DNA of 55,363 nucleotides, the filler included, from Jimgerdemannia flammicorona (lineage: Eukaryota): the NCBI GenBank assembly GCA_003990765.1. It is 3 parts of 3 records of this genome, joined end to end, with 100 filler letters (N's around TTAATTAATTAA, not from the genome) between each part and the next. Parts side by side here need not be neighbours in the genome. Positions count along the whole stretch, not along the records: positions 1 to 18,390 come from RBNJ01002221.1; 2 more parts are not named here. One strand, 5' to 3'. The position numbers were made by a program, and so were the translations under genes. The notes beneath the pieces were generated by a model. The model saw only the letters and a program-made list of their open reading frames with translations. It did not search any database and was not told where the DNA came from. This document shows, one piece after another, positions 1 to 54,000 of the stretch (the stretch's first letter is position 1; each line of letters starts with the position of its first letter).

Positions 1-1153
1 TTTTTTTTTTTTTTTTTTTTTAATTACTCAGACTTTACATTTATTACTTATTTGGTTTATTAAGATATAATTACAGTACTCTAACCCACTACCCAATCTC
101 CCTTGGGAGACTCTTCTATAAACTTTTATAATTGAAAGCCATCTTACTATCTGCTACTATAGCCCTCTTCTCACTCTGCCCATATATCTCTCTATCAAGT
201 AGTATCTACAATCTCTCTACAGACTCGATCCCAGCCATCAACCCATCAAGACATCCTCCATCAACTCTTCTCATCTTGTTAATTACTCTCTCAAGCTCAA
301 CTACTATCTCTCCTCAAAAATAAATAACCAGTATCCAGCCAATCTCACATATATAGCCAAAACTCACCTAATAGTAAGCTACTTATTTCCAAATCCACCC
401 ACCAATCTTTCTCTCAAATTCTCCCATTGATCTCTCTCATCATCTCTCCTCCTCAAAATACTCAATCTATCCCCAACTGCTAACCAAAAGTCTTTAAATA
501 TCTCGCACTCTTATAGCTAATATTCTGATATCTACATAATTCTCTCTTTCTGTTCTATATTATAACACTCCTCACAGTCAAATTGTCCACCTTCCACAAG
601 ATGACTAGAATGAAGTTGAGCATGATATTTCTTCTTAACAAGTACTACTATACTACCCAGAACTCGGAAAGCAGTCTGTACTATATTTAGAAACTCTACT
701 AGACTCCATTCTAGTCTTACTCTTTAATAATATCTGCCATCTGCCAGCCACTAGGGCATATATTCTGTTGACCCTCACTAGTACTCTACTCCATTACCAA
801 TAACAAAGTCAATTAATAAAGTACCCCACAATAACATATAATGCTATCAACATATTGCCAGATTTCACAGTATCTCTCCCTCAGCACTATACTAGTTGTA
901 AGTGCATAACCTCCAAGCAACCGAAGTTACATGTCACCCTCTGAACAAGCCACTGAAACCACATGTGAGCTCTGAACAAATCTGGAAATCACCTGCTTGA
1001 TCACAAAGCTGAGTCAATACAAAGTCACAGAATACAAGATTCATACAAATGGAATCTTATCAATCAGGACCAAATGCAAATATACTGAGCACCGAGATAT
1101 GTCGAATCAGAGAACCAAAACAAAAAACAACCACAACTTCCAAATACACAAAC

Positions 1154-2248
1154 ATGACCACTGAGATCTATACCTGTATCCATGCTGACATTTGGAATGC
1201 CATTGTCAACTGAGCCACACCCCCTCAGCCCCTCATGAATATCCATAGTCTAGCACCCCTCTACTTCATGGAAGCCTGATGGAATGCTCTGAACATGCTT
1301 AGCAAGGCCCATTGAATTGGACAAATCTCAAGCTACTACCAGATCGGCCACCTCCTGGAAGACATGATCGAACACCACTACAATACAGACATTATCCAGA
1401 TATCTCAACACCAGCTCATCACCTGCAAACATCAAGAACTCTTCTATGAGTATAGCACTATTATTCCCTACCTCCAAGTTACTACAGCCGAAATGGTTGC
1501 TACCCTGTCCTATGGCCAAATTGATGACATGATACAAGAACACAACCACAAGTATCTCAAGTACATCGAAACTACAGACAGAACCTTTCCACACCCCAAT
1601 GATCATATCCTGCAAATGCCCTAAGTTGGATATGCCATGAAGGACATCTATGATATAATCCACTTTGATGAAGATGAAGCAGAAGACAATGATCCCTCTG
1701 ATGCCAACATGACCTCTAGCCAAGGATCTCTACCAACCCTGATAACACCGCCAACCTTGCCAATGAACTTACAACAATTCATAACAGCATACAAGACTTA
1801 TTGGAACAATGACCACTGGCATGAATACCAACCCATGTTCATGCCCAATTACTTCAACTACAATGAAGAGACCGGAGAACACAACCTGTACCTCCAGACA
1901 ATCCTCAAGATTGAACCAACCACCCCACCACCTGAGTATGAGTGACATGAACCACAGCCACCAGCTTACTACAACCTTATGACTCATAGTGCTGTAACCT
2001 ACAGAAGGTATGCAGACAGCGAATCCGATGAAAGTGAAGACAATGCACCCCTCCTTTGCCCACCAACACCTTATCCAGCATATGAGACAGATGATGCTAT
2101 TCTGTAGGATAGTGATGAAGTTTCAATGTATTATTACCTCAGTGAATAAGGAGAAGTAATCCGTGAACCACTCTTCCTAGATGACTACTCTATCAGAGAT
2201 GATGCAATCAATAGTGATGTCATCGAGGACTACCCAGACAGCATCTAA
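1154..2248 (+). pseudogene. LTR-internal ORF of unknown function (365 codons, acidic C-terminal half), interrupted only by transition-type stops
   Basis: A single frame runs from ATG 1154 to TAA 2246-2248 and joins track ORFs 1364..1624 and 1637..1945. Internal stops are TGA/TAA/TAG. Where another copy can be read, it often has CGA, CAA or TGG at those positions. Confidence 0.85.
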
Positions 2249-2441
2249 ACCTATAAATAGCATAGCAGTCATATGTAGTATAGTTAGATTAGCCTTGTAT
2301 GATGTGACTGTGAACTGACTCGGCAGTCAGATGATCTCTTGACATATCAGATCACACTTTTACTATGTGACTGTATTCTGACTCAGCAAGGTACTTAGTG
2401 CTACATCCATATTCAGCATAGTCTAGATAGCCCCTCACTAG

Positions 2442-2570
2442 TATAAATACCCCCTCCCCCAGACCTCAGAATCTTAGACTCGAGCACACAAGAACATTCC
2501 TGAGCACTTCCCTACAATATCCCTTCACACAACTACTCCTAGTATAGTAACATCATAAATAGTGAATAAA
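2442..2570 (+). promoter_or_regulatory. Putative LTR TATA box (TATAAATA 2442-2449) and polyadenylation signal (AATAAA 2565-2570)
   Basis: Both motifs are retained at equivalent positions in copies B, C and D. Their order fits a U3-R-U5 organisation. Confidence 0.6.
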
Positions 2571-3485
2571 CCTATTTAATAACCTATAAACCACTCTTAA
2601 GTAAATCCACTCTCTGTTAGGTCCCACTCCTAACTCCGTTACGAAATTTCCTAATTGGGTATTGTCTGCAGTGATATGCCAATTCAACTAAGCTGGTCTT
2701 AGTTTCTTAAACTTCCTGAAATACGGAAAATCCTAAACATCCAGAACTAGTCCAAAAAAGGACTTTGGTTGAGACATCAACCTGATCTTGAAATCAATAA
2801 GTGTAGAGGACATACTCCATATGAAATTGATCTTGACCAATAGAAAACGGTCTTCCAGAATATCCAGAACCTCCAGAAAACCTTTCCAGAACTATATAAT
2901 GGTTACCCTAAAAAGCAACCCTCTTATACTAGTAAAGATCAATATAGTGTATTTCATCAACTACTCTCTACCAGAAGCCCTTATATTATATACACTTACT
3001 ATTCCTAAGTCCCACTAAAGACAATAGATACCCCAATAAGTCTCTCAGTAAAAATCTCATCTCCCAAACCTTCTGTATCAAGAGAACTCAGCTGTCTCTC
3101 CTTAGTTCTACAGCTCTCTTCAGCCACCATGTTCTTAGATAATAAAGTCTCTTTGAGAAGTCAACTAGTCTATGACCCCCTCTATCTACTGATATTGACA
3201 GAATATCTTAGTTAATCTGATTCTGCCTCTCAGCCCAGACCCAGTCCTTGGCCAGCTTAAATAGCCTCTTCACCACCTAGGCCAGAAAGTCCAAATAATA
3301 TATCAAATACTATACATTCAGAAGTCAGTATCATTCAGAATTGAAAAACAGTCTATAAAGAGATATATTGATTACCTCAGCTCTACAGGATCTCTCTCCA
3401 AATAACCATCTGCTAATCCTACTAAGTTTTAGGCAGAACTGACTTATATACTGAAAGAAAAATGCTCAAGTATTATATATATATA

Positions 3486-6400
3486 TTTTTTTTTTTTTTT
3501 TTTTTATAGTCACTTGGACTCTGCCTTTATTACCAGTCTATGAATAAGTATACATCATCACCACCCACTACCCAATCTCCATAGGGGGGCCCCTCTCCAC
3601 CTCCTCACGAATAAAGATCACTCTTTTACCAACTACTCCAACTCTCTCCCCACTCTGTCCACAAATTTTCTCTACTAAGCAGCACCTCTGACCACCCTGC
3701 AGCCCCCAACCAAGCCACCAGCCTGTTAAGGTGTCTTCCATAAGCCTATGCCACCACAACAACCAGTTCCCCAAATCCTGTCTCCTCCCATCCTTAAAAA
3801 CAAATAGCCAGTGACTGGCCAGCCCCACCCAAATAGCCAAAGCCCAGTCCAAAGTAAGCCACTCCTTCCCTATCCCCCCTACCAATCTATCCCTCAAGTC
3901 CTCCCACCTCCCCCATACTTCATCTCCCCTACACTGTACCCCCAAGCATTTCCCAATTGCCTGCCAAAAATCCCCCAACACCTCACCCTCTCCTAGCTAA
4001 TATTCAGGTATCTGTACATAACCCCCCTTCTGCCCTACATTATGGCACTCCTCACAGTCAAAGCAACCCCTTATGATAAGGTGCCCTGAGCAAAAGTTGA
4101 GCATAACATTCCTCTGCAGTATGCGCCACCAGACCACCCAGTACTTTGGCGGCATCCACTTTCTCACTGCAGCACTCCAGGTCTATGCTCAAGTACTATA
4201 TGGTATCTCCAGTGTAGACAATAGTTCTAATGTCATCTCCTCTTACTAAACCATTGCTAAATATCATCATTTATATTTATATTAGTTGAGTTTTATCCCA
4301 GAGTGAGCCTCATAACACTCTACTGTTTTCTTAAGCACTTACATATCTGCAATTAATCCAAGTCCAACTACTATATCATCTGCAAAGGCTCTAACTTCCA
4401 GATCATCCCAAATATCAAGAGCTCTACTACTTTGTAATAAATCCTATCTATCAATGGCTCTAAGAATAGAGTATACAAAATAGGAGACAATGGGTCACTC
4501 TATGAAATACCTCTATCTAGAGAGAATATCACACTCCAATGATCATTATATATGAGTACTATACTGCTCTCTTCTATTAAGTTGATTATAGATACTCAGA
4601 ACTACTAAGAGACCACAATCCTATCCAGCACCTTCACCAACCAGACTCTTTAGATATAATTATTGGTGTTCTTCTAATCCAGAAAGACCAATCTTCTATC
4701 TAGCTTACAAGCTTGAGCCCTCATGAATCTAAGCCATATTATTCTGAATAAGTCAGTCCCTAATAAAGCTCTGTTATTTTTTACTCAATACTTGTTAGAC
4801 CACCTTCTGCAGCCTTACAATAATTACCTTGGTGACTATATTTCTGTCTATATCTAGGAGCATAATATGCTACCAGTTCTTTCAATCCTCTCTCCTACTC
4901 TTATTCTTATACAACAGTATCACCAGCTCCAGATTCTGTCCTCCCACCTACTTCTCTGACTATAGTACAGAGTTACAAAGTATCATTATTATGCCCAGTA
5001 CTCCAGAGACTTTACCATCTTCTTCCAGAAGTTTCAGGGCAGTATATCCTCCCCTAGTACTGTGCTCAGTTTAGATATAGCAATAATCTAATAAATCTCC
5101 TCCTCTTGAACTGGCAGCACTAAACTGCCAAGTCCATCCACTTGTAGTAAGTACCAATCCTTCAGAGTATATTCAATAGTAGCAGCATTAGCCCCACCCT
5201 CCTTCTCACTCTACAGACCACTCCACCTTTCCTTCAGAGAGCTTAAAATATTTTGTAAATTATAGACCAGTAGACTCTTAGTATCCAAAACCACTTTTAC
5301 ATCTGCCTCATCCCCCTAGTTTGAATAAGTCTTAAGAGATACTTAGAGGGACTCTCTTCCTCCTCAAGTCCCAGTCAATGCAGCCATATAGCCATTCCTC
5401 TTACAAGAGTCTCCTCCTCCTTCTTCAATACTTGTTATAACTCTATGACCTCCAGCTTTGCTTGTATTAATTTCCAATCCTCTAGCCCCTCCAAGGTCAA
5501 TAGATCAGCCCATTTCTTTTGAAGCTGAACCAACCTAGTAGAGGTCCAAGTCACTCTTATTCTTTACTATTGTTCTACTACCTTGCCAGTCTCACCTTAG
5601 TAAACTCTAGTAGCCTCCTTCTGCCTCACTCACTAAGTATTTACTGGAATGTTTTTTTTTTTTTTTTTTTTTTTTTATAGTCTCTTGGACTTTACCATTT
5701 ATTATTGATCTATCATTATAATTAAAATAACCCCATCTACTACCCATACCCCTAGGGAGCCTCATCTTTATATTCTTATACTTAAATACTACCTTACTAC
5801 CTACTATCCCAACTATCTCCTCACTCTGCCCATAAATTTTCTCTACTAAATAGTATCACCAATCTCCCTACAGATACCATCCCAGCCATCAGCCCATCAT
5901 GACATCCTCCATTAATCCTTCCCACCTCAACAACTACTCTCTCAGATACAAATTCTTCCCTTTCTCAAACATAAATAGCCAATAACCTGTCAGCCCCATT
6001 CATACAACCAATACCTAACCCAAAGTGAGCCACTTCTACCTCACCCCCTGCCACCAATCTATCCTTCAGATCCTCCCATCAACTCCTCTTATCATCTCCC
6101 CTATTACTGGAATGCCCTGTCAGACCCAATAATCTGCTTTCTGTCTGATGCTCTCAGCTAAAGTATCCTACAACCACTTCTCAACTAACAAAGAAGAATT
6201 GAGGTACTAATATCCAGGCCCATTCCCACTACTCCCAAACTGACCATGCTCTAATAAGTCCCAATGATCTGGCTATAGATACTACTCAATCTTCAGAAAT
6301 CTCCAGATATCCAGACTCTAGTAATTGGCTATCAGCACCCTATCAATTCTAGTCTCAAGACCACCTATAGACTCTCCTATCTCCCTATATTGCTCAACCA

Positions 6401-9005
6401 GCATCTATTCAGGATCTAAGTTACTCTATCTCCTCTCAACCCTTTAGGCTACTACTTCTGCTCTCCGCATTTCTCTCCTCATTGGTTCTGTCCAACAGTA
6501 CTATTTGAACTATATTGAATTCCTCTCCAAGCATATCCACTCCTGCCTCCACTAGTACCTGACTATCCAAAAGACCATCTATCCACTCTACATACTTACT
6601 GCTAACTATAGAGCAGTAATAAGATTCAACCAAATTAGCTCCTACTCTAGCTAATACCATTCGCTCCAAACTAGTCAATTTTCCCAATTTCTGCTTTCAT
6701 ATATTTCACCTTGCTCTTTCTGCACTAGTAGCCTACTCTTGCTATTCAAAACTATATTTTCTCTCTACTCTCATCCACTCCTATTGATCAAGGTCCTCCT
6801 TATAATACACATTCTATCAAAGAAAGAGATCAGCTTCCATTTCCTTCAACTAAGTGAAAATGTTATACTATCTCTCAGAACCTCTCCAGTTTTTCATATT
6901 TAATAAAAAAATGTTAGTTATACTGTTCATAGGGAATAATATTGTAATAAATATATTCTCTTTACAGATCTATATTCATCTCCTCTCTAGCTAAGTTTAA
7001 TCTATATTCTCTGGTTGCCTCTTCTCTCTCAATCTACTTAGCCATTGCTGCATCATCCTTCTCCTCTATCTCCTCCCAGTACTCCAAGCAAACCCCTTGT
7101 CAGATCTCCAGTCCATGTCTCTGTTCTCACCAGAAAGCTGTATGCTCCCTAGTATTCACTATCAACTCAACCTCCCTCACCTTATCTATCTCATATCCTT
7201 CCTCATCTAGGAATACTACCAATATCTCAGTCTCTAGAGATACTACAATACTATCTCTCTACAGTACTCTTGCCCAGTACTCCTCACTGATAACATATAG
7301 GTCTACATCTCCTAACTTCTCAGCTGCTAAGTTGTTTATCACCCAGAACATCCACTGTAGATCACTAATCAACTTGCTCCCATGGGTTGCTGGTCTGCTA
7401 TCTTTTAGCATCATTGCATCTGCCCTAATACTTTCTGCCTCATCTCACTCCTCCTCAGAAACATCCACCAGCTCATCCTCCTCAATATCAACTATCTGCC
7501 CTCTACTTTTTATCTCAGATACTCCAAATTGAATATAGCAAGTCCCCAATATCTCTACATTCCCACCAACTTTTGGCTATATGATCCCAGATCACCTTCT
7601 TCTATCCTTGCTCTCCTTCTATATCTCTAGTATAACATCATCATAGAGAGCCTAATTCTCTATCTCCTAGCTCTCACCCATAGTTTTCACACTCTTCCCC
7701 ACATCATTATCAGCCCAGACACTCTTCTGAGCACCTCCTGAGACTCTATCAGAACTGGGTAATACCTTCTCTTTCTCCTTCAAACTCACCAGCAACTACT
7801 TCTACTACTTATACCTCTGAGCTCTCTCTCACTACTTATTATCTCTCTAAATACACTTTTTATCCACCATCTCTAGGTGTATTGAGCCTACATATATCTG
7901 ATATACCTTACTTCACTACTCTTCTATCCTACTGAGCTCTTTTAGTATCTCTACCAGATTCTTCTCCTCCTCTATACTCTCCTTTACTTCTGTCTCTTTA
8001 TACATAAATATATCCAAGTTCTGAAGCTTCTCTATAGCTTTCTTTCCAGTTAGCTCCAGCCAGATATCCTCATCTTCTATTCTGAACAAAGTCTCCTCCT
8101 AGATCTAGAAACTAATATTAACTACCTCACTATACTTAGCTATGACTTCCTCTACTCTCCTCTTTGTCTCAACCATCATTATTATAAATACTCTCTTCAC
8201 TGTAGCTAGATTATCCTGAGGTTCCACCTCAGACAGCTAGCCATTAGGACCACCTTTTCTCTCATAGTCAACCTGGTCTTCAATATCTCCTCCAAGAGAG
8301 CAGTCTTCTCAAAGCCCACCTCAACTCTCTCAAGCCCCTTCAAGAGCTTCATCAAGACAGCTCTAACTATCTGCTTCAAGATCAGTCTTAGTATCATCTT
8401 TACCATTACTGATAAGTCCTGGAAGTATAATGTGACTGTAAACTCTAAGATTGATTTCTTGAGTAACAGAACTACTACCAGATAAATTATACCATCAGTC
8501 AGATTCCTCTACACCTGTTGGTTACTCTAGATAGCTCTATCATCATTACATCTCTTTTTTTTTCCAGATTCCCCATCATACTGCCATCAGTAGTCATATT
8601 ACTACCTCTAGCCATAATCCCTCCTGCCCCTATACTTGCTCCTCTGGATATAGGGCCCACTACTATCTCCAAGATAGCTTTGTCTTTCCCCCAGCTATAT
8701 CAGTCTAAGCATCTACCTGCTATCTACTCTCCTTAATCTTATCAGCCTAACTAAAGGACTTAAATCTGCCCTCATTTGTGTCTGACATTGGCCCCACTCC
8801 AGATCTTTTTCCACTATTTATACCTCCAAAAAAGCCTGTCCCCAGATCATATCTCCTCTCCACTTACTGTCAGCTGAATGTCCCAGATCCCCCTAACTCA
8901 ATACACCTATCTGAACTCTTGCTTAATAATATATTACTAGTGTCTTTTCTCTGAGTTTTGTTGAAAGGTATTGCTTGTATAATGTAAATTATACCAGAGA
9001 AAGCA
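3486..9005 (-). mobile_element. Degenerate near full-length L1/Tx1-like LINE (ORF1 plus APE endonuclease/RT ORF2) with internal deletions
   Basis: Poly-T tail at 3486-3505. RT-region remnants at about 4300-5100, endonuclease at about 6200-6930, ORF1 remnant 8206..8406 (KLLKGLERVEVGFE). The 5' motif near 9000 is shared with other copies. Confidence 0.85.
5652..6103 (-). mobile_element. Short 5'-truncated LINE 3' end nested in another LINE
   Basis: Poly-T at 5652-5676. An 11-bp TSD TTACTGGAATG lies at 5641-5651 and 6104-6114. Confidence 0.85.
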
Positions 9006-9894
9006 TTATAGCTATATCTAATTCTTAATATAGTATAGTATTATAATTAGCAGTCACCTATTCTCACAGTTATAAAAGATTATTTATAGAAAAAGAATTC
9101 TTAACTAAGCAACTTTATAGCTAGCAAACTTATATAAATAACCTAAATACATATCTATAGTAAATAAATCTTAGACTAAAAGAGTTTAAGGCTTAATTTA
9201 ATAGTCTAAAATATAATGAGATTAGATAGATATTATCTATAACTCTAGGAAGTAAAAAAGAGATATAGAAATTTGATACAATTTCTAGATTATATATCTA
9301 CTATATCAATTTTAAAATTCAATTAATATTTAATTTATAGTTTTTTTTGAACTTATTTTAAATTTCAATAATTCTAAAATTCAAAATTTTTTGAAACTAA
9401 AATTATATTAATTAAATGATATTGTAGAGAAGAATTTTTTTAATAAAGTTATATATTTTATATATTGATATATTAAGTTAATATTCTAATACTCCTACTT
9501 AATAAGATATATAACTTAAAAAAAAAACAAATATAAAGTAAACTGTAACCAAATAAAAACTAGAATAAAAAGTAATATATAATTTATGTATAACTAGAAC
9601 TATATAACTCAGAATTATAACTATTAAAAAAATATTATAAGTTAAATAGTAATCAAAAATATTAGAAATATCTGCTCTTAGATTAGAGATATGAATATAT
9701 TACCTATAGAAATATAATATATATATATTTAATATACTATTATACCTAATTAGAACTTATAAGATATATTGTAACTTTGTTAAAAATATAGAGTAGAGAA
9801 GAAGAAGGATATTTATTATTTTAGATTATATATATTTATAAATTGAAATTAATAATATAATTTAAAATAATATAATTATATATAAGTTATATAT

Positions 9895-12059
9895 TATAAT
9901 AATATCTTAAAAACGATGATATCAAAAGCCAATAAGTTTCTGGTTATAAATTGTAACTCACCTATAACTCATCTTGATCAGAAGATGATTTGTATCTGAA
10001 CTTATTGTGACTCATAATGATCTCAATAGTATACTACTCCAAAAAAAGATAACTTTACCTCTGGACTAAAGAGGAAGACCTCCTTAAGATATAAAAGAAA
10101 CATTGAAAAGAAATATAAGACATTATCTGCAAATAGGAAACTCACTACAAAATGGAATACCTGCTCTCTGCCAAACAATAAGATCAAGAAACTATCTAGA
10201 TCTATCAGTCTAAAATCAGATATTCTCTGATATCAAAAGAGCTATGAGGATAGGTACAAGAAGTACTCTAAGCTTGAACCATATTACAAGTAACCTATAC
10301 CACTACACTCTCAACTATTATGAAATAGAAACAAGAATCTCTACTACTACTGAGTGTCTCTGGATATGATATAAGTTAAGGTATCATCTTTGCAAAGATC
10401 TCCCATAAGCCAACTCTGAAGAAATTATATATACCACATACCTGTATAGATATGAACAGAAGTTGGCTAAGAGAGTCTATCAGACCTTCAGGCATATACC
10501 ATGGGCCATTCCTAACTTGGAATTATCAAAGTTTTAGATATCCAAGAACTGATAAGCTACTCTATAGATCATCTTGAAGAAATGGTTATAGAAGAAGCTC
10601 AGTCTACTATCACAGGCAAGAGTGATGAGGTTCAAGACCTTTGGATCTCTGTTCTAGAAGACAACTCAGATCAGTTCCTTCAAGATCTGATTACATTGTT
10701 CTAAGGCCCTCCTCTGAGAGTCTGCTATTTTCAGAATTCCACAAATATATCCTACTTTGTGGATAATAATACTATCAGTTAGAGATCTCAATAACCAGAG
10801 TAAGTGAACTACTTATCTCATAGGAAGAAGACCTTAACAATCTCCTTAAGGAGTATTTAAGTCCACTATCAGCACTTACAGAGCTCTCTACTAACCTTAG
10901 CATAACTATAGAGGATACAGAAAATGATTTGGCCAGACTCTCTTAAGAAAATGAGTAAGTGGATGAGGATTATATAATCCTAATAATATTAAACTTTAAG
11001 TTATATAAGGATGGCTCTATTAGTCAAATTTGAGTAAGTTAGTTAGTTATACAAATATTGACTACCTAACTAGCTAAATTTGACTAAGTTAATTGTTATA
11101 CAAAGAGTGACTATCTAACTAGCCAAATTTAAGTAAGTTAGTTAGTTGTACAAATAGTAACTATCTATTAACTAGCCAAATTCTTCACAAATATAAATTA
11201 GCCTTATTTAGCTAGTTAGTCACTTGATTTCCAAAAGTGTACCAAATAGTATCTCCTAGTAATTGTGAGTTATAACCAATTATATAGTTTTATATATAAT
11301 CTGAAATTTATATAAATACTCTCTTGACTTGTAGTAAATAAATCTCAGTCTATTTGTGTTTGAAGTAAAAGGAATTACAGAGAAACCCACTGTCTCTAAG
11401 AAATAGGAATAATTCTAAGAGATAAGATAACTAAAGCAATAATTACTTAAGGTTTGAGTTTTTAGAATTTCTCTTACTATAGACTGTTACAGAAATCAGA
11501 TACAAAACTTAGAAAATATCGGAATGTTGTCAGGAAACCTTGCCAAGGATACCAGAATAATTGCCAATCTATCAGAAAGCTCAGCAAACTTATGAAAACA
11601 CTAGCCAGAAACCCAAGAATAAGTCAGTCAAAATTACCACTACTAAGAAAACTGCTAGGAAATCTACCAGATAAGAAAATGCTACCACAGTCAGTAAGAA
11701 AGTAACTGTCATCAGGATTCAAGACCCAGGAAACTTCGGAACAGCCAAAAGATATGTTAGACTATCAAGGAATACAAAAAACCCATGAAAATGATTACCA
11801 GAGCCTGTGATATCATTCTTTCACTCTTTGTTATTCTGAATGACTAGTCATATAACTAATGGCTCATGATATATAAACTCAGTAATGTATGAACTCTAAC
11901 CTGAGGTAAGAAATGTAAACAAATTAAACAGCAGTTGAACTAAACATTGTATTGAAATATTATTAGAGATAAAGTGATACATAGTATATAAATAACCAGT
12001 AGAACATTGATCTATACAATTTAGCAAACAATTGATACAAATTGCACACTATAATATAT
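9895..12059 (+). mobile_element. Family-2 LTR-like repeat, copy 1 (highly mutated), with degenerate ORF at about 9960-11033
   Basis: Colinear with 12060-13362 and with the minus-strand copy 45300-49438. Start TATAATAATATC corresponds to TGTGATGATATC of copy 2. TATAAATA at 11311 and AATAAA at 11337. Confidence 0.7.
11021..11185 (+). repeat. About 50-bp tandem repeat x3 (TAGCCAAATTTGAGTAAGTTAGTTAGTTGTACAAATAGTGACTACCTAAC-like) in family-2 LTR
   Basis: Three units are visible here, two at about 13175-13290 and one at about 46095-46152 (minus). Confidence 0.85.
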
Positions 12060-13362
12060 TGTGATGATATCTTAGAAACTGATGACATCAAAACACAGGA
12101 GACTGCTCAGACTTTATAAATCTCCAATTATAAATTATAACTCAACTATGACTCATCTTGATGGAAAGATGATCTATATCTGAACTCATTATAACTTACA
12201 GTGACCTCAGTAGTATATTACTCCAATCAGATGAATCTATCTCTAAGGCAACTCTTAGGATATAAAAGAAGTATCAAAAGAGAGTATAAGATACTATTCA
12301 CAAATAAGAAACTCACTACAAAACAAAATGCCTACTATCTGCTAAATAGTAAGGTCAAGAAACCACTTAGGGCTATCAGTTTAATATCAGATGTTCTTTG
12401 ATATCAAAAAGGCTATGAGGATATATACAAGAAGGACTCTAAGCCTGAACCTCTTTATAAAGAATCCATACCACTATATTCTCAAATGCTATGAAATAGA
12501 AATAAGCATCTCTATTACCACTAAGTGCCTCTGAATATAGTTAGAATATGAGTTAGGGCATCATCTCTACCATGATCTCTTAAGAAATTATAGACACTAT
12601 ATGTCTGAATAGATATATATAGAAGTTGGTCATGAGAGTCCACCAGATCTTCAGGTATATACTCTGGGGTATTCCCAACTTGAAATTTGTCAAGATTTCA
12701 GATATTCAAGAACTAACAAGTTACTCTACAGACTATCTTGAAGAAATGGTTACAGAAGAAGCCCAACCTACTATCATAGTTAAGAGTGATAAGGTTGAAC
12801 CCCTTTGAAACACCATTTTAGAAGATAACCTAGATAAGTTCCTTCAAGGTCTGATTGCATTATTCCAAGATCCTCCTCTGAGAGTCTACTACTCTCAGAA
12901 TTTTACAGATATATCCTACTTTGTAGATAACAATACTATTGGTTAGAGATCTCAAGAACTAGAGTAGGGTGAACTACTTATTTCATAGGAAGAAGACCTT
13001 GACAACCTCCTGGAGGAGTATATAAGCCCTCTTTTGTTATCTACTAAATCCACCACTAATCTCAAGAGGATACAGAAAATAATTTAGCAGGACTTCCTGA
13101 AGAAAATGAGAAAGAAGATAATAATGATATAATTTCAGTCATATTGAACTTCAAGTTGTATAAAGATGACTCTATTAGCCAAATTTGAGGAAGTTAGTTA
13201 GTTGCACAAACAGTAACTACCTAACTAGCCAAATTCAAGTAAGTTAGTTAGTTGTACAAATAGTGACTATGTATCAACTAGCCAAATTCATCATAAATAT
13301 AAAATAGTCTCATCTATCTAGTTAGATACTTGATTTTCTATGCTAAATAGTATCTTCTAGCA
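12060..13362 (+). mobile_element. Family-2 LTR-like repeat, copy 2, truncated by the following LINE
   Basis: Begins TGTGATGATATC. Contains ORF remnants 12201..12401 and 12626..12808. Homology to copy 1 stops at about 13362, where a LINE 5' end begins. Confidence 0.75.
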
Positions 13363-16300
13363 ACACCTTTCTCTGCTACAATTCTCATTACACATACTTT
13401 TACAATATACTTTGAAGTCATTTATTGGAGAAAGATATTAAGGCAATGGTAATCAGTAAGTAAGCAGATATGTATACTAGGTCAGATGAACCTGGGGCCT
13501 TCAACTAGCAACATATCAGATAAGGGTATGGGCTTTGGATGGGGTCTTCCAGTGGCTCAAGTGGGTAGGGCAGCTCAGACAGTAGAAGTGAGACTGGTGG
13601 TGAGGCTGGAGGGAAGAAGGGGAGGGCTTTGTGGACATGCTGCAGGCTAGAGGTTGGCTGGTGAGAACTCAGAGTGGGCAGGTAGGAGGGAAGGAGAAGT
13701 AGAAGATTGGGGAAGCTGGAGGTGCTGGACCTCAGCCAGTGGGAGATAGGGCTAGTGGAGTAGCTGCTGGGAGTAGTGGCAGGACTACTGATGGAGGTGT
13801 AACTGGAAATCTGGAAAAAAATCCAGATGTAACTGTTGATAGGAGGGCTGGGCAGACTGGCCCAAAGAGGAAGAGTGATCTAGCAGATAGTGTGATGGGG
13901 CTGGTGGTGGCACCATTACTGAAGAAGTCAATCTTAGAGTTTGTGGCAACCTTGTGCTTCTGAGGCCTAGCAGTGATGGTGAGGATGATTGTGGGGATTA
14001 TCTCGAAGCAGGTGGTGGAGGCTGTCTCAGTGAAGTTCCTGAAGGGATTGAAGAGAGTGGAGGTGGGTTTTGAGGAGACAGGGCTGCTGGAGGAGGTGTT
14101 GAAGACTAGAGTGGCTGGAGGAGAGATGGTGGTACCTATGGTATAGTGCTTGAGGTGGGACCCCAGAGTTGTTCAGCTGCTGGTGAAGGGGGTTACTACA
14201 ATGCTACATACTGGAAGGCCTGCAACTCCAGGGGGGAAAGAGGTGGAGAACCTACTGTGGTTGTATCAGATGATGAACAATTTTGCAGCTAAAGAGTTGG
14301 GAGATGTGGACCTGCAAGTGATGAGTGAGGAGCATTGGACATGGATCTTATAGGATAATGGGGTTGTAGAGGCACTGAAGGTGGAGGTGCTTGCAATTCT
14401 TCTAGAGGAGAAAGGATATGAGGTTGATAAAGAGAGGGAGGCTGAGCTGGCAGTAGTTGTGGGTGAGCAGGTGCCTTCTGTTGGGCAGAGCGACATGGGC
14501 TGAGACTCTGGCAGGAGGCCTGCCTGGAGTATCATGAGAACTTCAAGGAAAAGGAGGATGGGGAGATGGCTGAACTTCTGGTGGGATTGGAGACAAAGGA
14601 GGTTGAAGAGGAGGTTTTGACTGATGAAAACAACTTGGACTTGGTATGAGAGGAGAGGCATGTGGATTTGTAGAGGATGGACTGGATATTTCTTCTAAAA
14701 AACATTTTATTTAATGAACAGTACAACAAGTATTTTCTCTCTGAATGTGAATAGACTACAGGGATCTGGGCAGCATAGGAACATTTTTAATTAGCTTAAG
14801 AGTTTGGAGGCTGATCTCTTTCTGCTGCAGGATGTTTGATGTGAGGATGATGAGGATCAGGAGGCATAGATTAGATAAAGGGGAGGAACTGCAGCTTGGA
14901 TTGGCAAAGTGGCTATTTTGGTGCAGGGTGGTAAAGGGGACTTGGGTGGAATAGAAAGCTGGGGAGACCATTTGGTGTGAGGGGAATAGCATAGGCCTGG
15001 GTGGGTACTGGTAAAAGTTGGGTCTTGTTATTGCCCAATTGTTAGGGGTGAGAGAATTACATAGATTAAGAGTCTTTTGGAGAATGGCACTCTTATGGAG
15101 GAGGGGGTCAATATTCTGGAAGGAGACTTTAATATGGTGTGGGATATTCAGTTGGATAGGACTGATAGAGGGAGGAGTGCTGGTGGTAGAAGTGGTGGCC
15201 TAGACAAGTAGGAGGAGGTGGAGAACCTTAGCTCTCTGGGAGATATGGGCAGGACAGAGTGGGGAGACAGAAGGATTTATATGCACTGGGTAAATGGACT
15301 GGATACAAGAATTGACTGGATCCTGATGGCCAGGTGCTGGGGAATTGATGTTTTGAAGACTCTGGAGGTGGAGTGGTACCTATGATCTGATCATTGGGGT
15401 CTATTGGGGTGGGAGCAGTTTGGGGAGAGTGGAGATAGACCCAGACATTGGTGCCTTAACTCCTCTCTGCTTGCTGAGAAGGTTTTGTAGGACCCATGGA
15501 TGGAGGATATCTAAGTGAAGATTACCAGCTGGGCATACAAGGGTTTACCAGTAGGTGTCTGATAGATAAATTGAAAGAGGCTAGATGGGTTTACTGGGGA
15601 GGGGCCAGTAGAGAGACAGGGAAGCAGAGAAGGAAAAGAGTGAGGTGTGCTTCTAGTCAGTTGGTTAGATTGTAGATGGAATGGTCAGATTTGTTAAATT
15701 CTGGTGAGGTCAATAACTGGTGGTTGGCATGGGCAAAACTGGAGGTTATGGAGTGCAACAGATGTTGAGAGAGGAGGAGGAGATGTGCATGAGAGGAATG
15801 GCAGCTAGGCTGAGGAAGCAGGGGCTTGAGAAGGGAGAGAGAGAGGCCTACTAGATATTTATCAAGACTTCTCTAGTCGAGGAGGGTGTGGCATCAATGG
15901 GATGGGGTCCTTGATACAGAGGAGGAAATGGTGCATGGCCCACAACAGATCTTGGAGGTGCTGAAGGAGAGGTGGAGGGGTCTGTTGAGTGAGGAGAAAG
16001 GGGTGAGGATGAGGTGGCAATTAGAGATATGCTGGAGAATTGGGATCTACTGCAAGTTGAGAGCCTTGGTGACTTGATCCTACTGGTCCAAAAGGAGGAG
16101 ATCCAGTGAGTCCTTGTGGCAACTAAGCTTGGGACAGCACCAGGAGAGGATGGGTAACCTTGGGACTTCTGGAAGAAGATGGTGAAGATTCCTGGAGTGA
16201 TAACCCTCTGTGACCATTTTCTCCTAAATGGCAAGTAGGTTGGTGAGCAGGACTTGGGGTTGGTATCCTTATTATACAAAGACAAGAGGAGGAGAGAGGA

Positions 16301-17971
16301 CTGGAACAACTGGAGACCAATCATGGTTCTGGATATAGATAGGAAGATAGTGACCAAGTGATTGTTGCAAGATTGCCCAACAGGTGCTAGGTGAGGAGTA
16401 GTGGGGCTTTGTTGAAGGCAGGCTTATCAGAGATGGGACTGCCTGGGTTCATGGTATTATTGAAGGAGCACAGGTTTGTGGATTGGATGGAAGACTGATC
16501 TTTTTGAACCAGGAAAAGGCCTATGACTGCATTTGGCAGGTGTGGCTGGGCAAGATGCTGGATAGAATTGGTGTTCTTCTATGATTTTGAGCTTCTATGT
16601 CGAATCTATTAGAGGAAAGTAGAGCAACTCTGATGTGTAATGGTCACCAGAGTCTATCATTCCTCTTAGGAAGAGAAGTTCCTCAGGGAGATCCATTGTC
16701 TATCCTCTATACTCTTTTGTTAGAACCTTTAATGGATAGGATATGATGGAAGGTGACAGAGCTCTCTGTATATGGTGTGGTGTAGAAGGTGGGGGCCTTT
16801 ACAGATGATATGGTAGTTAGACTTGGCTCAGTGGCAGATGTTGAGGTACTTAAGAAGACTGTGGAATGGTATTAGATATATTCTGGGGTAAAGCTCAACT
16901 GGCATAAGTGTAAGATAATGGTGCTGGGAATGGGCTAGTGGGAGGGGATGTCATTGGGACAATTGTCTCTACAGGAGAAGCAGTATGGTACCTGGGCATC
17001 TTCCTTTTAGTGTATGGGTCTGTCTTGCCAAGAGTGTGGTAGGAGAGGAGGGTGGCAATCTGTGGGGAGGCTCTTAGAGGTTGGGGAGGTCACCACATCT
17101 CCCTAGTAGACTGGGGTGTCAATTCTAAATGTCTACTGATTCCACAAGTTATGGTATGTTACTTATCATTTAGACTTTCCAGCTTGGGTGGTGAAGAGAC
17201 TAATAAAACTGGCTAGGGATTGGATTTGGGCAGGGAGGTGGTCTCAGATTAGTTGGGATACTCTTGCAATACCAGTGGATAGGGGAGGGCTAGGCCTAGT
17301 GGATTTTCCTAAGAGGCTACACTGCCTGCAAGATTGGTGGTTGGGTGCCACTGATGCAAAAGGTGTGGGAGATGAGATTCTCCCCATGAGGGTCATCAGG
17401 AGATTTGCTATCTCTGGTGGATCTGGATAGAAGCCAATGGTTATTGTATCAGGTTTTCTAGTGGCAGGTGGTAGATAGAGCATACTGAATAAGCCTGTAC
17501 TGGCAAAGCAATGAGGAAGAGATACTGTGGGGTCCGGCTATATAGTAATGGGGCAGCCTGCTTCTGGGGGGTATTCTACTTGCTGAATTTGACATTGGTA
17601 AAGGAGTGGCATATCAGCAGAGACTTGGTCAGAATCTATAGCCAAGTAGCTGGCAGGTAGTAGAGATTAGTAAGGAGTGAGACTGGGTAGGAGTCTGGTC
17701 ATAGAGTGCTGAGGTATAGAGGTGGCTTCCTCCCAAGTTCTGGGTGGTATGGTGGGGGATGCTGCAGAGGAATATCATGTTGAATTTCTATACTAGACAT
17801 CTGGTAGATGGTGGATGATTAGATTGTGAGAAGTTTTATAATGTAGGATAAGTTAGGAGATTTGTGCAGATGCCAGAACATTGGCTGGAAGAGTGTGAGG
17901 TTCTGGGGGACTTTTGGATGGCAGTAGGAGACCAGATGGGTGTGGAGAGGAGGCTGGATGGAGAGAGAGAT
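13363..17971 (+). mobile_element. Degenerate L1/Tx1-like LINE (ORF1 with internal deletion; ORF2 EN+RT)
   Basis: Conserved 5' end CACCTTTCTC. ORF2 start at about 14713 (MNSTTSIFSLNVN). Motifs GDFN, RIDW, SDHW, NWRPI, QEKAYD, PQGDPLS and GGLGL are readable with stops. Confidence 0.9.
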
Positions 17972-18390
17972 CGCCGGGGTCGCGGCATCTCTTTCCAGTA
18001 CCATTCAGGTTACACAACCTTTGGAAGGCACTTTCGACAACGTTTTCAGCAAAAAGAGACTAACAACATAGCAACCAACAGACAACCTGAGGTGCGTACT
18101 GGGCAGGGCAGCCCGAGCGCTTTCGACTGGCAGCAGGTGGGGAGGGGGCCAGGCCTGGGGGGCGGTATGAGGGGCCTGCTGGTGGGTGGACGTGGAAGGG
18201 GAGGAGGAGGTGGTAGAGGATCAGGATCTGGGAGGGCTAGCTTTGCGGAGATGGTGAAGGGGAGGCAGCAGGCATCGGGGCTGGAGGGCTGGCTGAAGAA
18301 GGGCAAGGGGACCGAGAAGGAGACGGTGCTGGGGGGTGCAGCCCTTGGAAGGGGGGGTGGTAGAGCTGAGGGAGGAGTGGCTGGGGGGGG
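17972..18390 (+). mobile_element. 5' end (UTR plus Gly-rich ORF1 start) of a young, CpG-intact LINE, cut by a gap
   Basis: Similar to the 5' ends at 13363, about 9000 and about 29108. Encodes RASFAEMVK. Many CpGs are retained and the frame is open to the gap. Confidence 0.75.
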
Positions 18391-29108: not shown

Positions 29109-29109
29109 T

Positions 29110-29666: not shown

Positions 29667-29672
<6 letters not shown>

Positions 29673-29702: not shown

Positions 29703-29704
<2 letters not shown>

Positions 29705-35825: not shown

Positions 35826-36879
35826 TGTAAGCGGGTTACTTTTTAGAGTAACCGTTACATAGTTCTGGAAGGGTTTTCTGGAGGTTCTGGATATTCTGGA
35901 AGACCGTTTTCTTATGGTCAAGATCAATTTCGTATGGAGTATGTCCTCTACGCTTATTGATTTTAAAATCGGGTTGATGTCTCAACCAAAGTCCCTTTTC
36001 AGACTAGTTCTGGATGTTCAGGATTTTCCGTATTTCAGGAAGTTCAAGAAACTAAGACCAGCTTAGTTGAATTGGCATATCGCTGCAGACAATACCCAAT
36101 TAGGAAATTTCATGATGGGGTTAGGAGTAGGACCTAACAGGGAGCGGATTTACTTAAGAGTGGTTTGTGGGTTATGAAATAGGTTTATTTGCTATTCATG
36201 ATATTGCTATACTAGGAGTATTTATATGAAGGGGTATTGTGGGGAAGTGCTCAGGAGTTGTGTTCGGATTGTTCAAGTCTGAGATTCTGAGGTCTGGGGG
36301 AGGGGGTATTTATACTAGTGAGGGGCTATCTGGACTATGCTGAATATGGATGTAGCACTAAGTGCTTTGCTGAGTCGGAATGCAGTCACGTAGTACAAGT
36401 GTGATCTGACATGTCAAGAGATCGTCTGACTGCTGAGTCAGTTCACAGTCACGTCGTACAAGGCTAATCTATCTATACTATGACTGCTAGACTATTTATA
36501 GGTTTTAGGCACTATCTGGGTAGTCTTCGATGACATCACCATCGATTGCATCATCTCTGATGAAGTAGTCGTCTAGGAAAAGTGGTTCGCGGATTACTTC
36601 TCCTTGTTGGCTGAGGTAGTAATACATTGGGACTTCATCTCCGTCCCATAGGATAGCATCGTCTGTTTCGTATGCTGGGTAAGGTGTTGGTGGGCGAAGG
36701 ATTGGTGTATTGTCTTCGCTTTCGTCGGATTCGCTGTCTGCGTACCTTCTATAGGTTATGGCACTATGAGTCGCGGGGTTGTAGTAAGTTGGCGGCTGTG
36801 CTTCATATCGCTCGTACTCAGGTGGTGGGGTTGTGGGTTCGATCTCGAGGGTTGTCTGGAGGTACAGATTGTGTTCTCC
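35826..36879 (-). mobile_element. Family-1 LTR copy B (3' half, least mutated), cut by a gap
   Basis: Terminal TGTAAG at 35826. Reverse complement of about 1890-2928. Retains many CpGs and a stop-free C-terminal part of the LTR ORF ending DYPDSA*. Confidence 0.9.
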
Positions 36880-45299: not shown

Positions 45300-48200
45300 T
45301 GTAAGAAAAGTAAAGAAAAAAAATATATATTAAGTTATATAATTTTAATTTTTATTAAAAAGTCAACTAAAGTTTATTAAAATAAAAATTAATAATAATA
45401 ATAGTAAAACTAAAATTAATAAGATTATAAAATTTAAATACTTTAAAATAATTTTATTATAAATAAAAATATTTATTATAATATATAATATATCTCTTAT
45501 TACTTCTGTATAGCTCAATATGCCTCTAAATTGTCTATATACTATCTCTTGTTTATTTCTTAATAGTATTTCTGACTCAATATTCACATCAACTACTATT
45601 TGGTTTATTTGAGTCATTGGTCACATAACTGGTCATTTAGTTTATACATCAAAAGGTCAATTACTTATATTATATATTATTCTTGAGTTTTCTAGTAAGT
45701 TGGTAATTTTAGTATTTTTGATTAGATTTCTTGGGTCTTGTATCTAATTTCTATAGTGATTTTAACTAACTAACTTATATCTTGAATATGTAGTCTTGAT
45801 CTTATATCTTAAGTTCTATAGTAATAAGAGTAATTCTTTAGCTCTTAGAGTCTTTTTTCCAAAGTTCTTACACTAGACTTTCTTGTCTTTCAGAACTTAA
45901 GTTAATATTGCAGACCAATTGACTGAGGTTTATTTACTACAGATTAGGGGATATTTATATAGTTTTCAGACTATATATAAGGCTAGATAATTAGTTATAA
46001 CTTATAATTACTAGAAGATACTAATTAGTATAATTTTGGAATTCAGATAACTAACTAACTGAATAAGGCTAATTTTGTATTTATGATAAATTGAGCTAGT
46101 TAATATATAGTTACTATTAGTCTAACTAACTAACTTACTCAATTTGGCTAATAGAGCTATTCTTATTTAACTTAAAATTTAGTATAATTGAGATTATGTC
46201 ATCCTTATCCTCCTTATCTTCAGGGAGTCTAACTAAATTATTTTCTGCATCTTTCACAATTGTGCTGAAGTCAGTGAGAGACTTTGGAGATAAGAAAAGA
46301 AAGCCTGCAGATTTCTTTAGGAAGTTATTGATATTGTCTTCTAGTAAAATAAATAGGTTACTATTATTTTCTAAATTGTTTTGAGAGGTGATATTATTGT
46401 TAACAATATTATCAAAGAGTATGTAGTTATTTTGCTCTTAAGATCTTCAGTCAATAGTGATATTATTTATAAAGTAGAGAATATTGTAAGAGGGTTACTT
46501 TTTAGGGTGACCGTTACGTAGTTCTGGAAGGGTTTTCTGGAAGTTCTGGATACTCTGGAAGACCGTTTTCTTATGGTCAAGATCAATTTCATATGGAGTA
46601 CATCCTCTATGCTTATTGATTTCAAGATCGGGTTGACGTCTCAACCAAAGTCCTTTTCCGAACTAGTTCTGGATGTTCAGAATTTTCTGTATTTCAGGAA
46701 GTTCAGGAAACTAAGACCAGCTTAGTTGAATTGGCGTATCGCTGCAGACAATACCCAATTAGGAAATTTCGTGACAGGGTTAGGAGTAGGACCTAATAGA
46801 GAGCGGATTTACTTAAGAGTGGTTTATGGGTTATGGAATAGGTTTATTTGCTATTCATGATATTGCTATACTAGGAGTAGTTATGTGAAGGGGTATTGTG
46901 GGGAAGTGCTCAGGAGTTGTATTCGAATTGTTCAAGTCTGAGATTCTGAGGTCTGGAGGAGGGGGTATTTATACTAGTGAGGGGCTATCTGGACTATGCT
47001 AGATGTAGATGTAGCACTAAGTGCCTTGCTGAGTCGGAATGCAGTCATGTAGTACAAGTGTGATCTGACATGTCAAGAGATCGTCTGACTGCTGAGTCAG
47101 TTTACAGTCATGTCATACAAGGCTAATCTATCTATACTATGACTGCTAGACTATTTATAGGTTTAGGCACTATCTGGGTAGTCTTCGATGACATCACCAT
47201 CAATTGCATCATCTCTGATGAAGTAGTCATCTAGGAAGAGTGGTTCGCGGATTACTTCTCCTTGTTGGCTGAGGTAGTAATACATTGAGACTTCATCTCC
47301 GTCCCACAGGATAGCATCGTCTGTTTCATATGCTGGATAAGGTGTTGGTGGGTGAAGGATGGGTGTATTGTCTTCGCTTTCATCGGATTTGCTGTCTGCA
47401 TACCTTCTATAGGTTACAGCACTATGAGTTGCGGGGTTATAGTATGCTGGTGGCTGTGGTTCATGTCACTTGTACTCGGGTGGTGGAGTGGTTGGTTCGA
47501 TCTCGAGGGTTGTCTGAAGGTACAGGTTGTGTTCTCCAGTCTCTTCATTGTAATTGAAGTAATCAGGGGTGAATGCGGGTTGGTATTTGTGCCAGTGGTC
47601 ATTGTCCCAATAAGTTTCATATATGGTTATGAACTATTGTAGGTTCATCAGCAAGGTTGGTGGAGTGATCAGGGTTGGCAGAGATCCTTGGCTAGAGGTC
47701 ATGTCGATGTCAGAGGGATCATTGTCTTCTGCTTCGTCTTCATCGAAGTGGATTATATCATAGACATCCTTCATAGTGTATCCAACTTGAGGCATTTGTA
47801 GGATATGGTCATTGGGGTGCGGGAAGGTTCTGTCTGTGGTCTGGACATATTCGAGGTACTTGTGGTTGAGTTCTTGTATCATGTCATCGATTTGGCCATA
47901 GGACAGGGTAGCAACCATTTCGCTGGTAGTAACTTGGAGGCGGGGAATAAAGGTATTGTACTCGTAGAAGAGTTCTCAATGTTTGCGGGCGATGAGCTTC
48001 TGGTGTTGAGACATCTGGGTAATATCTGTATCATGGTGGTGTTCGACCATGTCTTCTAGGAGGCGGCCGATCTGGTAGTAGCTTGAGATTTGTCCGATTC
48101 GGTGGGCCTCACTAAGCATGTTCAGGGCATTCTATCAGGCTTCCACGAAGTAGAGGGGTGCCAGGCTATGGATATTCATGAGGGACAGAGGGGGTGTGGC

Positions 48201-49438
48201 TCGGTTGATAATGGCATTCCAAATGTCAGCACGGATATGGTTGTAGATCTCTGTGGTCATGTTTGTATGTTTGGAAGTTGTGGTTGTTGTTTGTTTTGGT
48301 TCTCTGATTCGATGCGTCTTGGTGCTCAGTATATATGCATTTGGTCCTGATTGGTAAGATTCTGTTTATGTAGATCTTGTGTTCTGTGACTTTGTATTGA
48401 CTCAGCTTTGTGCGCTGTGACTTTGGTTTAACTCAGCTTCGTGATCAAGCAGGTGATTTCCAGATTTGTTCGGAGGTCGCATGTGATTTCAGTGGCTTGT
48501 TCAGAGGGTGACATGTAATTTCGGTGGCTTGGAGGTTGTGTGCTTACAAATATCTATAAAATTCTGGGAGAAGCAAACTCTCAAGAAAAGGTCTTGAAAT
48601 AGTGCAATCAAACTATAGATGAATTAGTCTAGATTGTTCTCTAGAATAGAGTTCCAAAGGTCTTAAATCTCATTACTCTTGACTATAATAGTAGATTGGA
48701 CTTCTTCTGTAACTATTTCTTCAAAATAGTCTGTATAGTGGCTTATTAGTTTTTAAATATCAGAGATTTTGACATATTTTAGATTAGAAATAGCTCAGAA
48801 TATGTCTAAAGATCTGATAAACTCTTTTGATTAATTTCTATTTATATCTATTCATATAAGTAGTATCTGCAATTTCTTAAGAGCTGGTTTATAAGAATTC
48901 TTAGTGAAGGTAATATCTCTTTTCATATTCTTGCTATATCTAAAGATACTCAGCAGTAGTGATAATTCTTGTTTCTATTTTACAGTAGTTAAGAGTACAT
49001 ATAGTGATAAGAATTTCTTGAATAAAGGTTTAGACTTAGAGTTCTTTTTGTATGTAATCTTATAGCTCTCTTGATATTAGTAAATATTTGTTCTTAAACT
49101 GATGAGCCTAGATACATAGCTTCTTGATCTTACTATTTAACAGATGACAGATATTTTATTTTCATAATAAGTCTTCTATTTAATGCTTGATACTTTTCTT
49201 CTTATTACTTCTTTTATATATATCTTAAGAGTCTTCTTCTTTAGTTTAGAGAGTAGGGTTACCTAATTTGGAGTAGTATACTACTAGAGTCATTATGAGT
49301 TATTATGAGTTTAGATATAGATCATCTTATAAATAAGATGAGTCACAGTTAAGTCATAATTTGTAACTGATAGCTTGTAAAGTCTAGATAGTCTTCTGTA
49401 TTTTGATGTTACTGATTTTGAAGATATATATCATTATA
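45300..49438 (-). mobile_element. Family-2 LTR (probable 3' LTR of a Gypsy element), about 2.07 kb net, split by family-1 LTR copy C
   Basis: Reverse-complement similarity to 9895-13362 on both sides of the insertion. Begins right after a PPT-like tract. Candidate end CTTACA (TGTAAG on plus, 45300); this left boundary is less certain. Confidence 0.65.
46485..48548 (-). mobile_element. Family-1 solo LTR-like element, copy C (2064 bp, complete)
   Basis: TGTAAG (46485) and CTTACA (48548) termini. 5-bp TSD AATAT at 46480-46484 and 48549-48553. Removing it restores the family-2 sequence. Carries the same ORF (track ORF 47634..47918). Confidence 0.93.
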
Positions 49439-53662: not shown

Positions 53663-54000
53663 CTTGCTACATATCCTATCCTATAGCCAAATAGATGATA
53701 TAATACAAGAACTCAACCACAAGTATCTTGAATATATTGAGACCACAGACAGAACCTTCCTACACCCCAATGACTATATTCTGCAAATGCCTTAAGTCAG
53801 ATATACTATAAAGAATATCTATAATATAATCTGATTTAATAAAGATAAAGCAGAAGATAATGATTCCTTTGATACTGACATGACCTTGAGTTAAGGATCT
53901 CTGCCAACCCTGATCACACTGCTAACCTTGCCAATAAACTTACAATAGTTCATAATCACATATGAAACTTATTGGGATAATGATCACTGACACAAGTATC
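53663..54000 (+). mobile_element. Family-1 LTR internal fragment (copy E)
   Basis: Matches about 1495-1830 (IDDIIQELNHKYLEYIETTDRTF). Confidence 0.85.

Follow-up and report, generated by a model that had tools for sequence, protein, structure and literature searches.

The DNA analyzed here, a 55,363-nt stretch (hereafter, the window) of the genome of the fungus Jimgerdemannia flammicorona, contains a repeated unit of about 2 kb that carries the remains of a 365-codon open reading frame (ORF). We regard the unit as probably a solo long terminal repeat (LTR) with a formerly selected gene in its U3 region. The window is composed of three contigs that were joined artificially through spacers (18391-18490 and 36880-36979, each consisting of TTAATTAATTAA with 44 N on either side), so neighbors across the spacers are not genuine. 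A self-BLAST of the window yielded five copies or fragments of the unit, designated A to E, with 81-93% identity (Table 1). Copies A and B were 86% identical and copies B and D 93% identical, and copy C showed 81-82% identity to the others.

The two full-length copies have the TG..CA-type termini that a first-pass annotation of this DNA had ascribed to them, with TGTAAG...CTTACA in copy B and TGTAAG...CTTATA in copy A, the end of copy A being one C>T step from that of copy B. The terminal inverted repeat amounts to 6 bp (TGTAAG/CTTACA). We also recovered the exact 5-bp target-site duplications reported for two copies, CTAGT for copy A and AATAT for copy B, each matching at 5/5 positions; the chance of finding two perfect duplications at the same element ends is about once per million. 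Both full copies inserted into older repeats, paralogs of which lack the insertion. The flanks of copy B were contiguous when aligned to 12880-12950, where the target (ATATA) is present once, and those of copy A matched a paralog at 17000-18000 on the minus strand, with 133 versus 137 nt between the anchors after removal of the element and one duplication. Given these defined ends, 5-bp duplications, and empty paralogous sites, the 2-kb unit is a discrete insertion, well beyond chance.

Table 1. Features of the 2-kb unit, its copies, and the neighboring host genes (positions in the window)
Feature	Position	Strand	Description
Copy A	897..2928	+	Full length, 2,032 bp; ends are TGTAAG...CTTATA, with TA in place of the terminal CA
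Left target-site duplication of copy A	892..896	.	CTAGT, read directly
Right target-site duplication of copy A	2929..2933	.	CTAGT
31-nt motif	1008..1038	+	Contains TGAGTCA; tandemly doubled in copy B; putative upstream activating role
TATA-like box	1078..1085	+	AAATATAC (CATATATAC in copy B), about 70 nt 5' of the ATG; possible promoter of the ORF itself
Decayed ORF of copy A	1154..2248	+	364 codons plus stop; 7 in-frame stops
TATAAATA	2252..2259	+	Immediately 3' of the ORF stop; 3/4 copies
Two 40-nt repeats	2286..2388	+	63 nt apart, with TGACTCG/TGACTCA; inverted relative to the 1008-1038 motif; 3' of the ORF
TATAAATA	2442..2449	+	4/4 copies; presumed LTR promoter and U3/R border region
AATAAA	2565..2570	+	4/4 copies; putative polyadenylation signal close to the R/U5 border
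Copy B	46485..48548	-	Full length, 2,064 bp, TGTAAG...CTTACA
Target-site duplication of copy B	46480..46484	.	AATAT on the plus strand (ATATT on the minus strand)
Second target-site duplication of copy B	48549..48553	.	AATAT on the plus strand (ATATT on the minus strand)
Decayed ORF of copy B	47163..48260	-	365 codons plus stop; 5 in-frame stops
Uninterrupted ("empty") site for copy B	12880..12950	+	Paralogous
Copy C	50288..~51985	-	Lacks the 5' end (lost from ~51977-51985); heaviest C>T/G>A load; 4-nt insertion in the ORF
Copy D	35826..36879	-	3' half only; cut by the contig end (linker 36880-36979)
Fragment E	53672..53998	+	327 bp from the ORF region
MYND-finger/TPR protein	41445-42302	+	Host gene
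Iron-hydrogenase-like (Nar1-type) protein	43194-44787	+	Host gene, intron-split

In copy A, the ORF runs from an ATG at 1154 to a stop at 2246-2248, and the ORF start lies 258-289 nt from the 5' end of the unit. In copy B, an in-frame TGA 16 codons from the 5' end places the beginning of the ORF within the unit, with no run-in from outside. The first-pass annotation had described a continuous frame at 1154-2248: we found no frameshift in copy A or B, but the frame is not open, since it contains 7 internal stops in copy A and 5 in copy B. The other two frames contain 15-37 stops in these copies. Each stop in the ORF frame can be derived by a single C>T or G>A change from a codon for Arg (CGA), Trp (TGG), or Gln (CAA or CAG) found in another copy or in P0003 or P0004, two related proteins described below, in agreement with the proposal that all stops are of the transition type. 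As reported, an indel in the ORF between copy A and copies B and C measures 3 nt, and the A-B indels are multiples of 3, but a 4-nt insertion that had been overlooked breaks the frame of copy C. A GAG CGA, said to persist where other copies have TGA, is indeed retained in one copy, which is the one at 35826-36879. The ORF is dead in every copy of the window, killed by C>T and G>A transitions. Thus, the suggestion that a gene is left behind in every solo LTR applies here to relics and not to working genes.

The private differences between copies consisted of 85-93% transitions. The observed/expected ratio of CpG was 0.23 in copy A and 0.55 in copy B, compared to 0.95 in a stretch of genes at 38700-45000, while that of TpA was 0.88-0.89, showing no excess. 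Copy C carried many additional non-CpG C>T changes. Counts of private changes by sequence context were confounded by parallel hits. The pattern looks less like classical repeat-induced point mutation, which targets CpA, than like the loss of methylated CpG from repeats by deamination. The classical process (Neurospora type, with a CpA>TpA bias and TpA excess) was not supported, as TpA was not in excess and the clear signal was CpG depletion.

We then asked the substitutions whether the frame had been translated, using dN/dS (the ratio of nonsynonymous to synonymous substitution rates) obtained pairwise between copies by the Nei-Gojobori method on a MAFFT alignment. Under this simple model, and between copies that are related and not independent, dN/dS in the ORF frame was 0.18 for A-B, B-C, and A-C and 0.09 for B-D. 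Because transitions dominate and bias the raw dN/dS low, nulls were generated by redistributing the substitutions. Redistribution within the same base and CpG class gave means of 0.53, 0.32, 0.38, and 0.55, respectively, for A-B, B-C, A-C, and B-D, and redistribution within the same trinucleotide context gave 0.42 (A-B), 0.31 (B-C), 0.36 (A-C), and 0.22 (B-D). Draws of the trinucleotide null were as low as the observed value in 0/500 cases for A-B, B-C, and A-C and in 3/500 for B-D. In the other two frames, dN/dS ranged from 0.69 to 1.16, save for a single value of 7.9, obtained for B-D over just 375 nt. Between copies, dN/dS, a measure recommended by the first-pass annotation, was 0.18 for three pairs, below the context-matched nulls of 0.31-0.42 and not near 1.

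Differences between copies A and B fell on codon positions 1, 2, and 3 in the proportion 45:24:74. Private changes, counted where at least 4 copies provided coverage, showed synonymous-to-nonsynonymous ratios of 12:6 in copy B, 9:3 in copy D, 16:14 in copy A, 27:38 in copy C, and 6:10 in fragment E, with a neutral expectation of about 1:1.5. The simplest reading is that the family diversified under protein-level selection and that each inserted copy then decayed neutrally. Together, these substitution patterns indicate that the 365-codon frame was a real gene, once under purifying selection. A sliding scan for low stop density was discarded as coding evidence, since it cannot tell coding from noncoding sequence in skewed DNA.

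Relatives of the encoded protein were sought with a near-length search among 5.8 billion clustered proteins and with a length-unrestricted HMMER search among 1.84 billion representatives. The near-length search returned a single relative, P0003, a protein of 247 amino acids that is open throughout on a 998-bp ENA contig and shows 66% identity and 83% positives to residues 115-364. The HMMER search matched only P0003 and P0004. The latter, named "hypothetical protein," has 128 amino acids, derives from a 1,180-bp JGI/IMG contig, and is 91% identical to the N terminus. P0004 begins at the same Met as the element ORF and has Arg, Trp, and Arg at the positions of copy B stops 42, 43, and 95. Its contig leaves space for some 800 nt 5' of the ATG, compared to the 258-289 nt available in the unit, and the surplus would be either unrelated flank or, in the case of a 3' LTR, a polypurine tract and the 3' end of an internal region. 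No longer or fused form appeared among the 1.84 billion representatives, and a search for shorter relatives gave nothing besides P0004. Metagenome scans with the protein alignment and with a 22-nt conserved LTR block were both empty, and a scan of viral contigs gave no match. Four sequencing runs shared sampled words with the DNA, namely, two from a single organism (0.42 and 0.40 of the words; their type, RNA, is a guess), a root metatranscriptome (0.09), and a soil metagenome (0.08); we draw no conclusion from them on expression, copy number, or habitat. P0003 and P0004 support a real, conserved protein, although there are just two of them, on short contigs.

The protein of copy B is acidic (isoelectric point of ~4.3, with 62 Asp plus Glu versus 18 Lys plus Arg), is rich in Tyr (29 residues) and Pro (28), and lacks Cys. 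It has no hydrophobic (membrane) segment, the maximum 19-residue Kyte-Doolittle mean being 0.9. No Pfam family matched the ORF protein at an E value of ≤0.1 (one match to a DUF had an E value of 0.18, far below the cutoff), and no PDB sequence matched it at an E value of ≤1. In particular, neither search revealed a gag, reverse transcriptase, integrase, or transposase domain, in keeping with the absence of such motifs noted earlier. Rfam and tRNA searches gave no match. In the ESM Atlas, P0003 reached a TM of ≤0.30 and P0004 matched only unnamed or unrelated clusters, none of them usable. An AlphaFold2 model built from a 4-sequence alignment had a mean pLDDT of 31.5 and a pTM of 0.18, with a hint that the N-terminal 140 residues are helical. 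We considered a late-domain function in view of PPxY-like motifs (PPEY and PPAY) in copies A and B, but we dropped it because the motifs are not kept in P0003. From the composition, we would guess, with low confidence, that the protein is an accessory factor of the element that acts in trans, as either regulator or adaptor, rather than a replication protein with a structural or enzymatic role.

Outside the ORF, the unit displays several shared motifs. The TATAAATA at 2442 and the AATAAA at 2565 have the same orientation and are separated by 120 nt within the 3'-most quarter of the unit; both occur downstream of the ORF in 4/4 copies (2442-2449 and 2565-2570), confirming the conservation attributed to them. 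Inverted relatives of the 31-nt motif are situated 55-150 nt upstream of this main TATA, and the 5' part contains short tandem repeats of the type seen in U3 enhancers. TGASTCA was found 13 times in the whole window versus 10.45 expected and is thus not enriched, with 7 of the 13 occurrences inside element copies; as these seven matches belong to related copies, a role of TGASTCA in promoters is something that we only infer. A repeat search on copies A and B showed that the longest direct repeats are internal tandems of 31-40 nt, and it detected neither terminal direct repeats within the unit nor a terminal inverted repeat longer than 6 bp. The sense strand of the unit is G-poor, with 15% G versus 26-29% C, a bias that it shares with other repeats of asymmetric strand composition in the window.

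The bulk of the window is made of decayed repeats with a strongly strand-asymmetric composition, the GC skew reaching ±0.5. Blocks with a skew of about ±0.5, the sign of which flips from block to block, cover 1-9000, 13000-23000, 24000-29000, and 30000-33000 and have a G+C content of 36-50%. These blocks appear to be decayed repeats with a G-poor sense strand. No Pfam domain was found in the frames of these blocks that were scanned, the Pfam scan of the window having covered all six frames for 1-13800, the minus strand for 13801-23500, 32000-35827, 48549-50288, and 51986-55363, and the plus strand for 23500-32000, with 13801-23500 and 23500-32000 thus represented by their G-poor strand. On the minus strand at ~32000-35826, we recognized by eye a stop-riddled frame resembling the N terminus of an L1-type apurinic endonuclease (..LNINGL..KRRRIF..NIVLLQN..), which was not reported by Pfam at an E value of ≤0.01; this region is probably a decayed non-LTR retrotransposon. 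A second repeat family of ~1.2 kb, with 71-76% identity, is represented at 9889-11129, 12054-13288, 48560-49439(-), and 45914-46281(-); it includes two direct copies 2.2 kb apart and is also the target of the copy B insertion. A repeat of ~450 bp (~70% identity) with a T run at its start occurs at 1-450, 3486-3931, and 5657-6103, and copy A is inserted in this older array of repeats. Stretches very rich in A+T (G+C content of 17-26%) adjoin repeats at 9001-10000, 45001-46000, and 49001-50000. An ordinary eukaryotic gene stretch, with 53% G+C and no CpG depletion, extends over ~37-45 kb and includes the two host genes listed in Table 1.

The TG..CA ends, the 6-bp inverted repeat, the 5-bp duplications, the lack of terminal direct repeats inside the unit, the short tandem repeats in the 5' part, the G-poor sense strand, and the succession of TATA and AATAAA motifs in one orientation all argue for an LTR. 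The 2.03-kb unit is, in our judgment, fairly likely to be a solo LTR, which would be the one repeat that remains once the LTR pair of an integrated retrotransposon has recombined, and to have held a formerly selected gene in U3. Judging from the TATA and AATAAA motifs, the ORF would be located wholly in U3: it is complete between the start of the unit (897) and the TATA (2442), which implies a U3 position provided that the unit is an LTR.

Several observations weigh against this assignment. No two of the 5 copies in the window form a pair around an internal region. Immediately beyond the four 3' ends stand CTAGT, ATATT, AAACT, and TATAT, with no primer-binding site of the TGG type, and no purine tract precedes the 5' end of copy A or B, where the target sequence is found. 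The claim of a solo LTR was therefore upheld as to a discrete, integrase-type insertion but not as to a paired copy (0/5) or an adjoining primer-binding site or purine tract. Pfam detected no gag, reverse transcriptase, or integrase domain in any scanned frame of the window, a negative that is weak because the DNA is so decayed that the L1-type endonuclease-like stretch escaped as well. Fungal LTRs usually measure a few hundred base pairs, and a length of 2 kb is atypical for one. No LTR lengths came from a term search of one survey (PMC3248453). With regard to the gene, new stops arose at the neutral rate (3 versus 3.0, 5 versus 4.3, 11 versus 11.6, and 8 versus 9.2), so no copy here is under selection now. 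Selection bias affects the intact relatives, since gene callers report only open frames and the contigs are ~1 kb in length. Finally, the structure model, with its mean pLDDT of 31.5, is unusable as evidence for the proposed function.

The unit might instead be a DNA transposon of the non-autonomous type, the terminal inverted repeats of which are very short and which has a 5-bp duplication and a passenger gene, its movement depending on a cut-and-paste DDE transposase encoded elsewhere. Such an element would account for the discreteness of the insertion, its 6-bp inverted repeat, and its 5-bp duplication, and no copy was seen beside retroelement genes in the frames scanned. We nevertheless consider this explanation unlikely, since the terminal inverted repeat is just 6 bp (<10 bp), the ORF has no transposase domain, and the TG..CA ends combined with a directional TATA-then-AATAAA arrangement in the 3' quarter form an LTR pattern. 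In addition, DNA transposon families with a 5-bp duplication are not known to have such termini, and a cut-and-paste element offers no obvious cause for the G-poor sense strand.

Another view is that the unit is complete as it stands, an undescribed kind of non-autonomous retroelement that was inserted as is by the integrase of a retrotransposon and was never one of two LTRs. Both copies open to judgment (A and B) are indeed solitary, each with its own duplication, and the unit looks like a full transcription unit. However, canonical reverse transcription of the LTR type needs terminal repeats on the RNA for integrase-competent ends to be rebuilt, and no terminal direct repeats were found inside the unit; moreover, a solo LTR is a common and simple explanation of such anatomy. 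We hold a complete unit of this kind to be distinctly unlikely.

The unit may also be an LTR in which the ORF is a host gene or gene fragment, captured by chance and carried passively, with no service to the element. Gene capture by LTR retrotransposons is known, and the ORF has no domain typical of transposable elements. Yet we found no cellular homologue, the only matches among 1.84 billion representatives being two relatives of the element ORF, both on short contigs. Furthermore, the signal of purifying selection lies between element subfamilies, which means that selection acted while the element carried the ORF, and we see passive carriage as a distinctly improbable account. As for the frame being a by-product of an A/C-rich, T- and G-poor composition that never coded for protein, many long, nearly stop-free frames do occur in skewed DNA and every copy contains stops, but this barely credible option was already disfavored by a dN/dS below all 500 context-matched nulls for three pairs with values near 1 in the other frames, by codon-position differences ranking third > first > second, by A-B indels in multiples of 3, and by a 66%-identical relative open over 247 codons.

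If the unit is a solo LTR, its organization can be accounted for by the position of plus-strand priming. U3 would start at the plus-strand priming site, the polypurine tract being upstream of a 3'-terminal accessory gene. Because U3 begins at plus-strand priming, a gene between the polypurine tract and R would be copied by reverse transcription into both LTRs at each round. The genomic RNA would carry the 3' copy of the gene at its 3' end, and the gene would stay after recombination between the LTRs. Copies in 5' or solo LTRs would be readable only from a promoter of their own upstream of the ORF, candidate parts of which are the TGAGTCA-bearing 31-nt element (1008-1038) and the TATA-like box (1078-1085). 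We tentatively propose, as a possibility to which we give limited credence, that a fungal LTR lineage moved a selected orphan gene with its own promoter wholly into U3, so that each LTR, including each solo LTR, was a self-contained gene copy that spread the accessory protein independently of gag-pol. The protein might have been a trans-activator acting on the TGAGTCA repeats that bracket the ORF or a factor that counters silencing.

A gene inside an LTR-like repeat is unusual. Should the solo-LTR reading be true, a shift in plus-strand priming would make a 3' accessory gene a component of the repeat, the gene dose would be doubled, and copies of the gene would be scattered as solo LTRs. The protein family, which is taxonomically restricted, shows a clear signal of selection, has no known fold, and is a good candidate for a factor of element-host interaction. 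Should that reading fail, the unit would be a mobile element of an undescribed kind, likewise of interest. Accessory genes in LTRs are textbook knowledge for a few vertebrate retroviruses. We found no description of a fungal LTR or retrotransposon with an LTR-borne gene in a literature search conducted largely outside subscription journals. In that search, phrases of the "LTR ORF" type led mainly to the superantigen of mouse mammary tumor virus (MMTV), and in passages of PMC12037069 and PMC6673714 they meant ordinary polyprotein ORFs.

Compared with known systems, the unit resembles the solo LTRs of Ty3/Gypsy or Ty1/Copia elements in its TG..CA ends, short inverted repeat, 5-bp duplication, and TATA followed by a presumed poly(A) signal, as well as in its many diverged copies and its insertion into older repeats. 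It differs from them by its size of ~2 kb, its complete 365-codon gene, and the absence of any paired copy or internal region in what we have seen. With TRIM and LARD elements, it shares a short repeated unit, integrase-type ends, and the lack of gag-pol. However, those elements are bounded by two terminal direct repeats of their own that enclose an internal part, and because the unit has no terminal direct repeats inside it, this layout is ruled out. The remaining comparison is with sag of MMTV, in U3, and nef of the human and simian immunodeficiency viruses, which overlaps U3. The ORF protein had no sequence relation to sag or nef in the Pfam and PDB sequence searches, the host is a fungus, the protein has no membrane segment, and the U3 assignment of the unit comes from motifs only. 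If it is an LTR, the unit is nonetheless like these viral systems in layout, with an accessory ORF in U3 that would be duplicated in both LTRs and would ride the 3' end of the genomic RNA.

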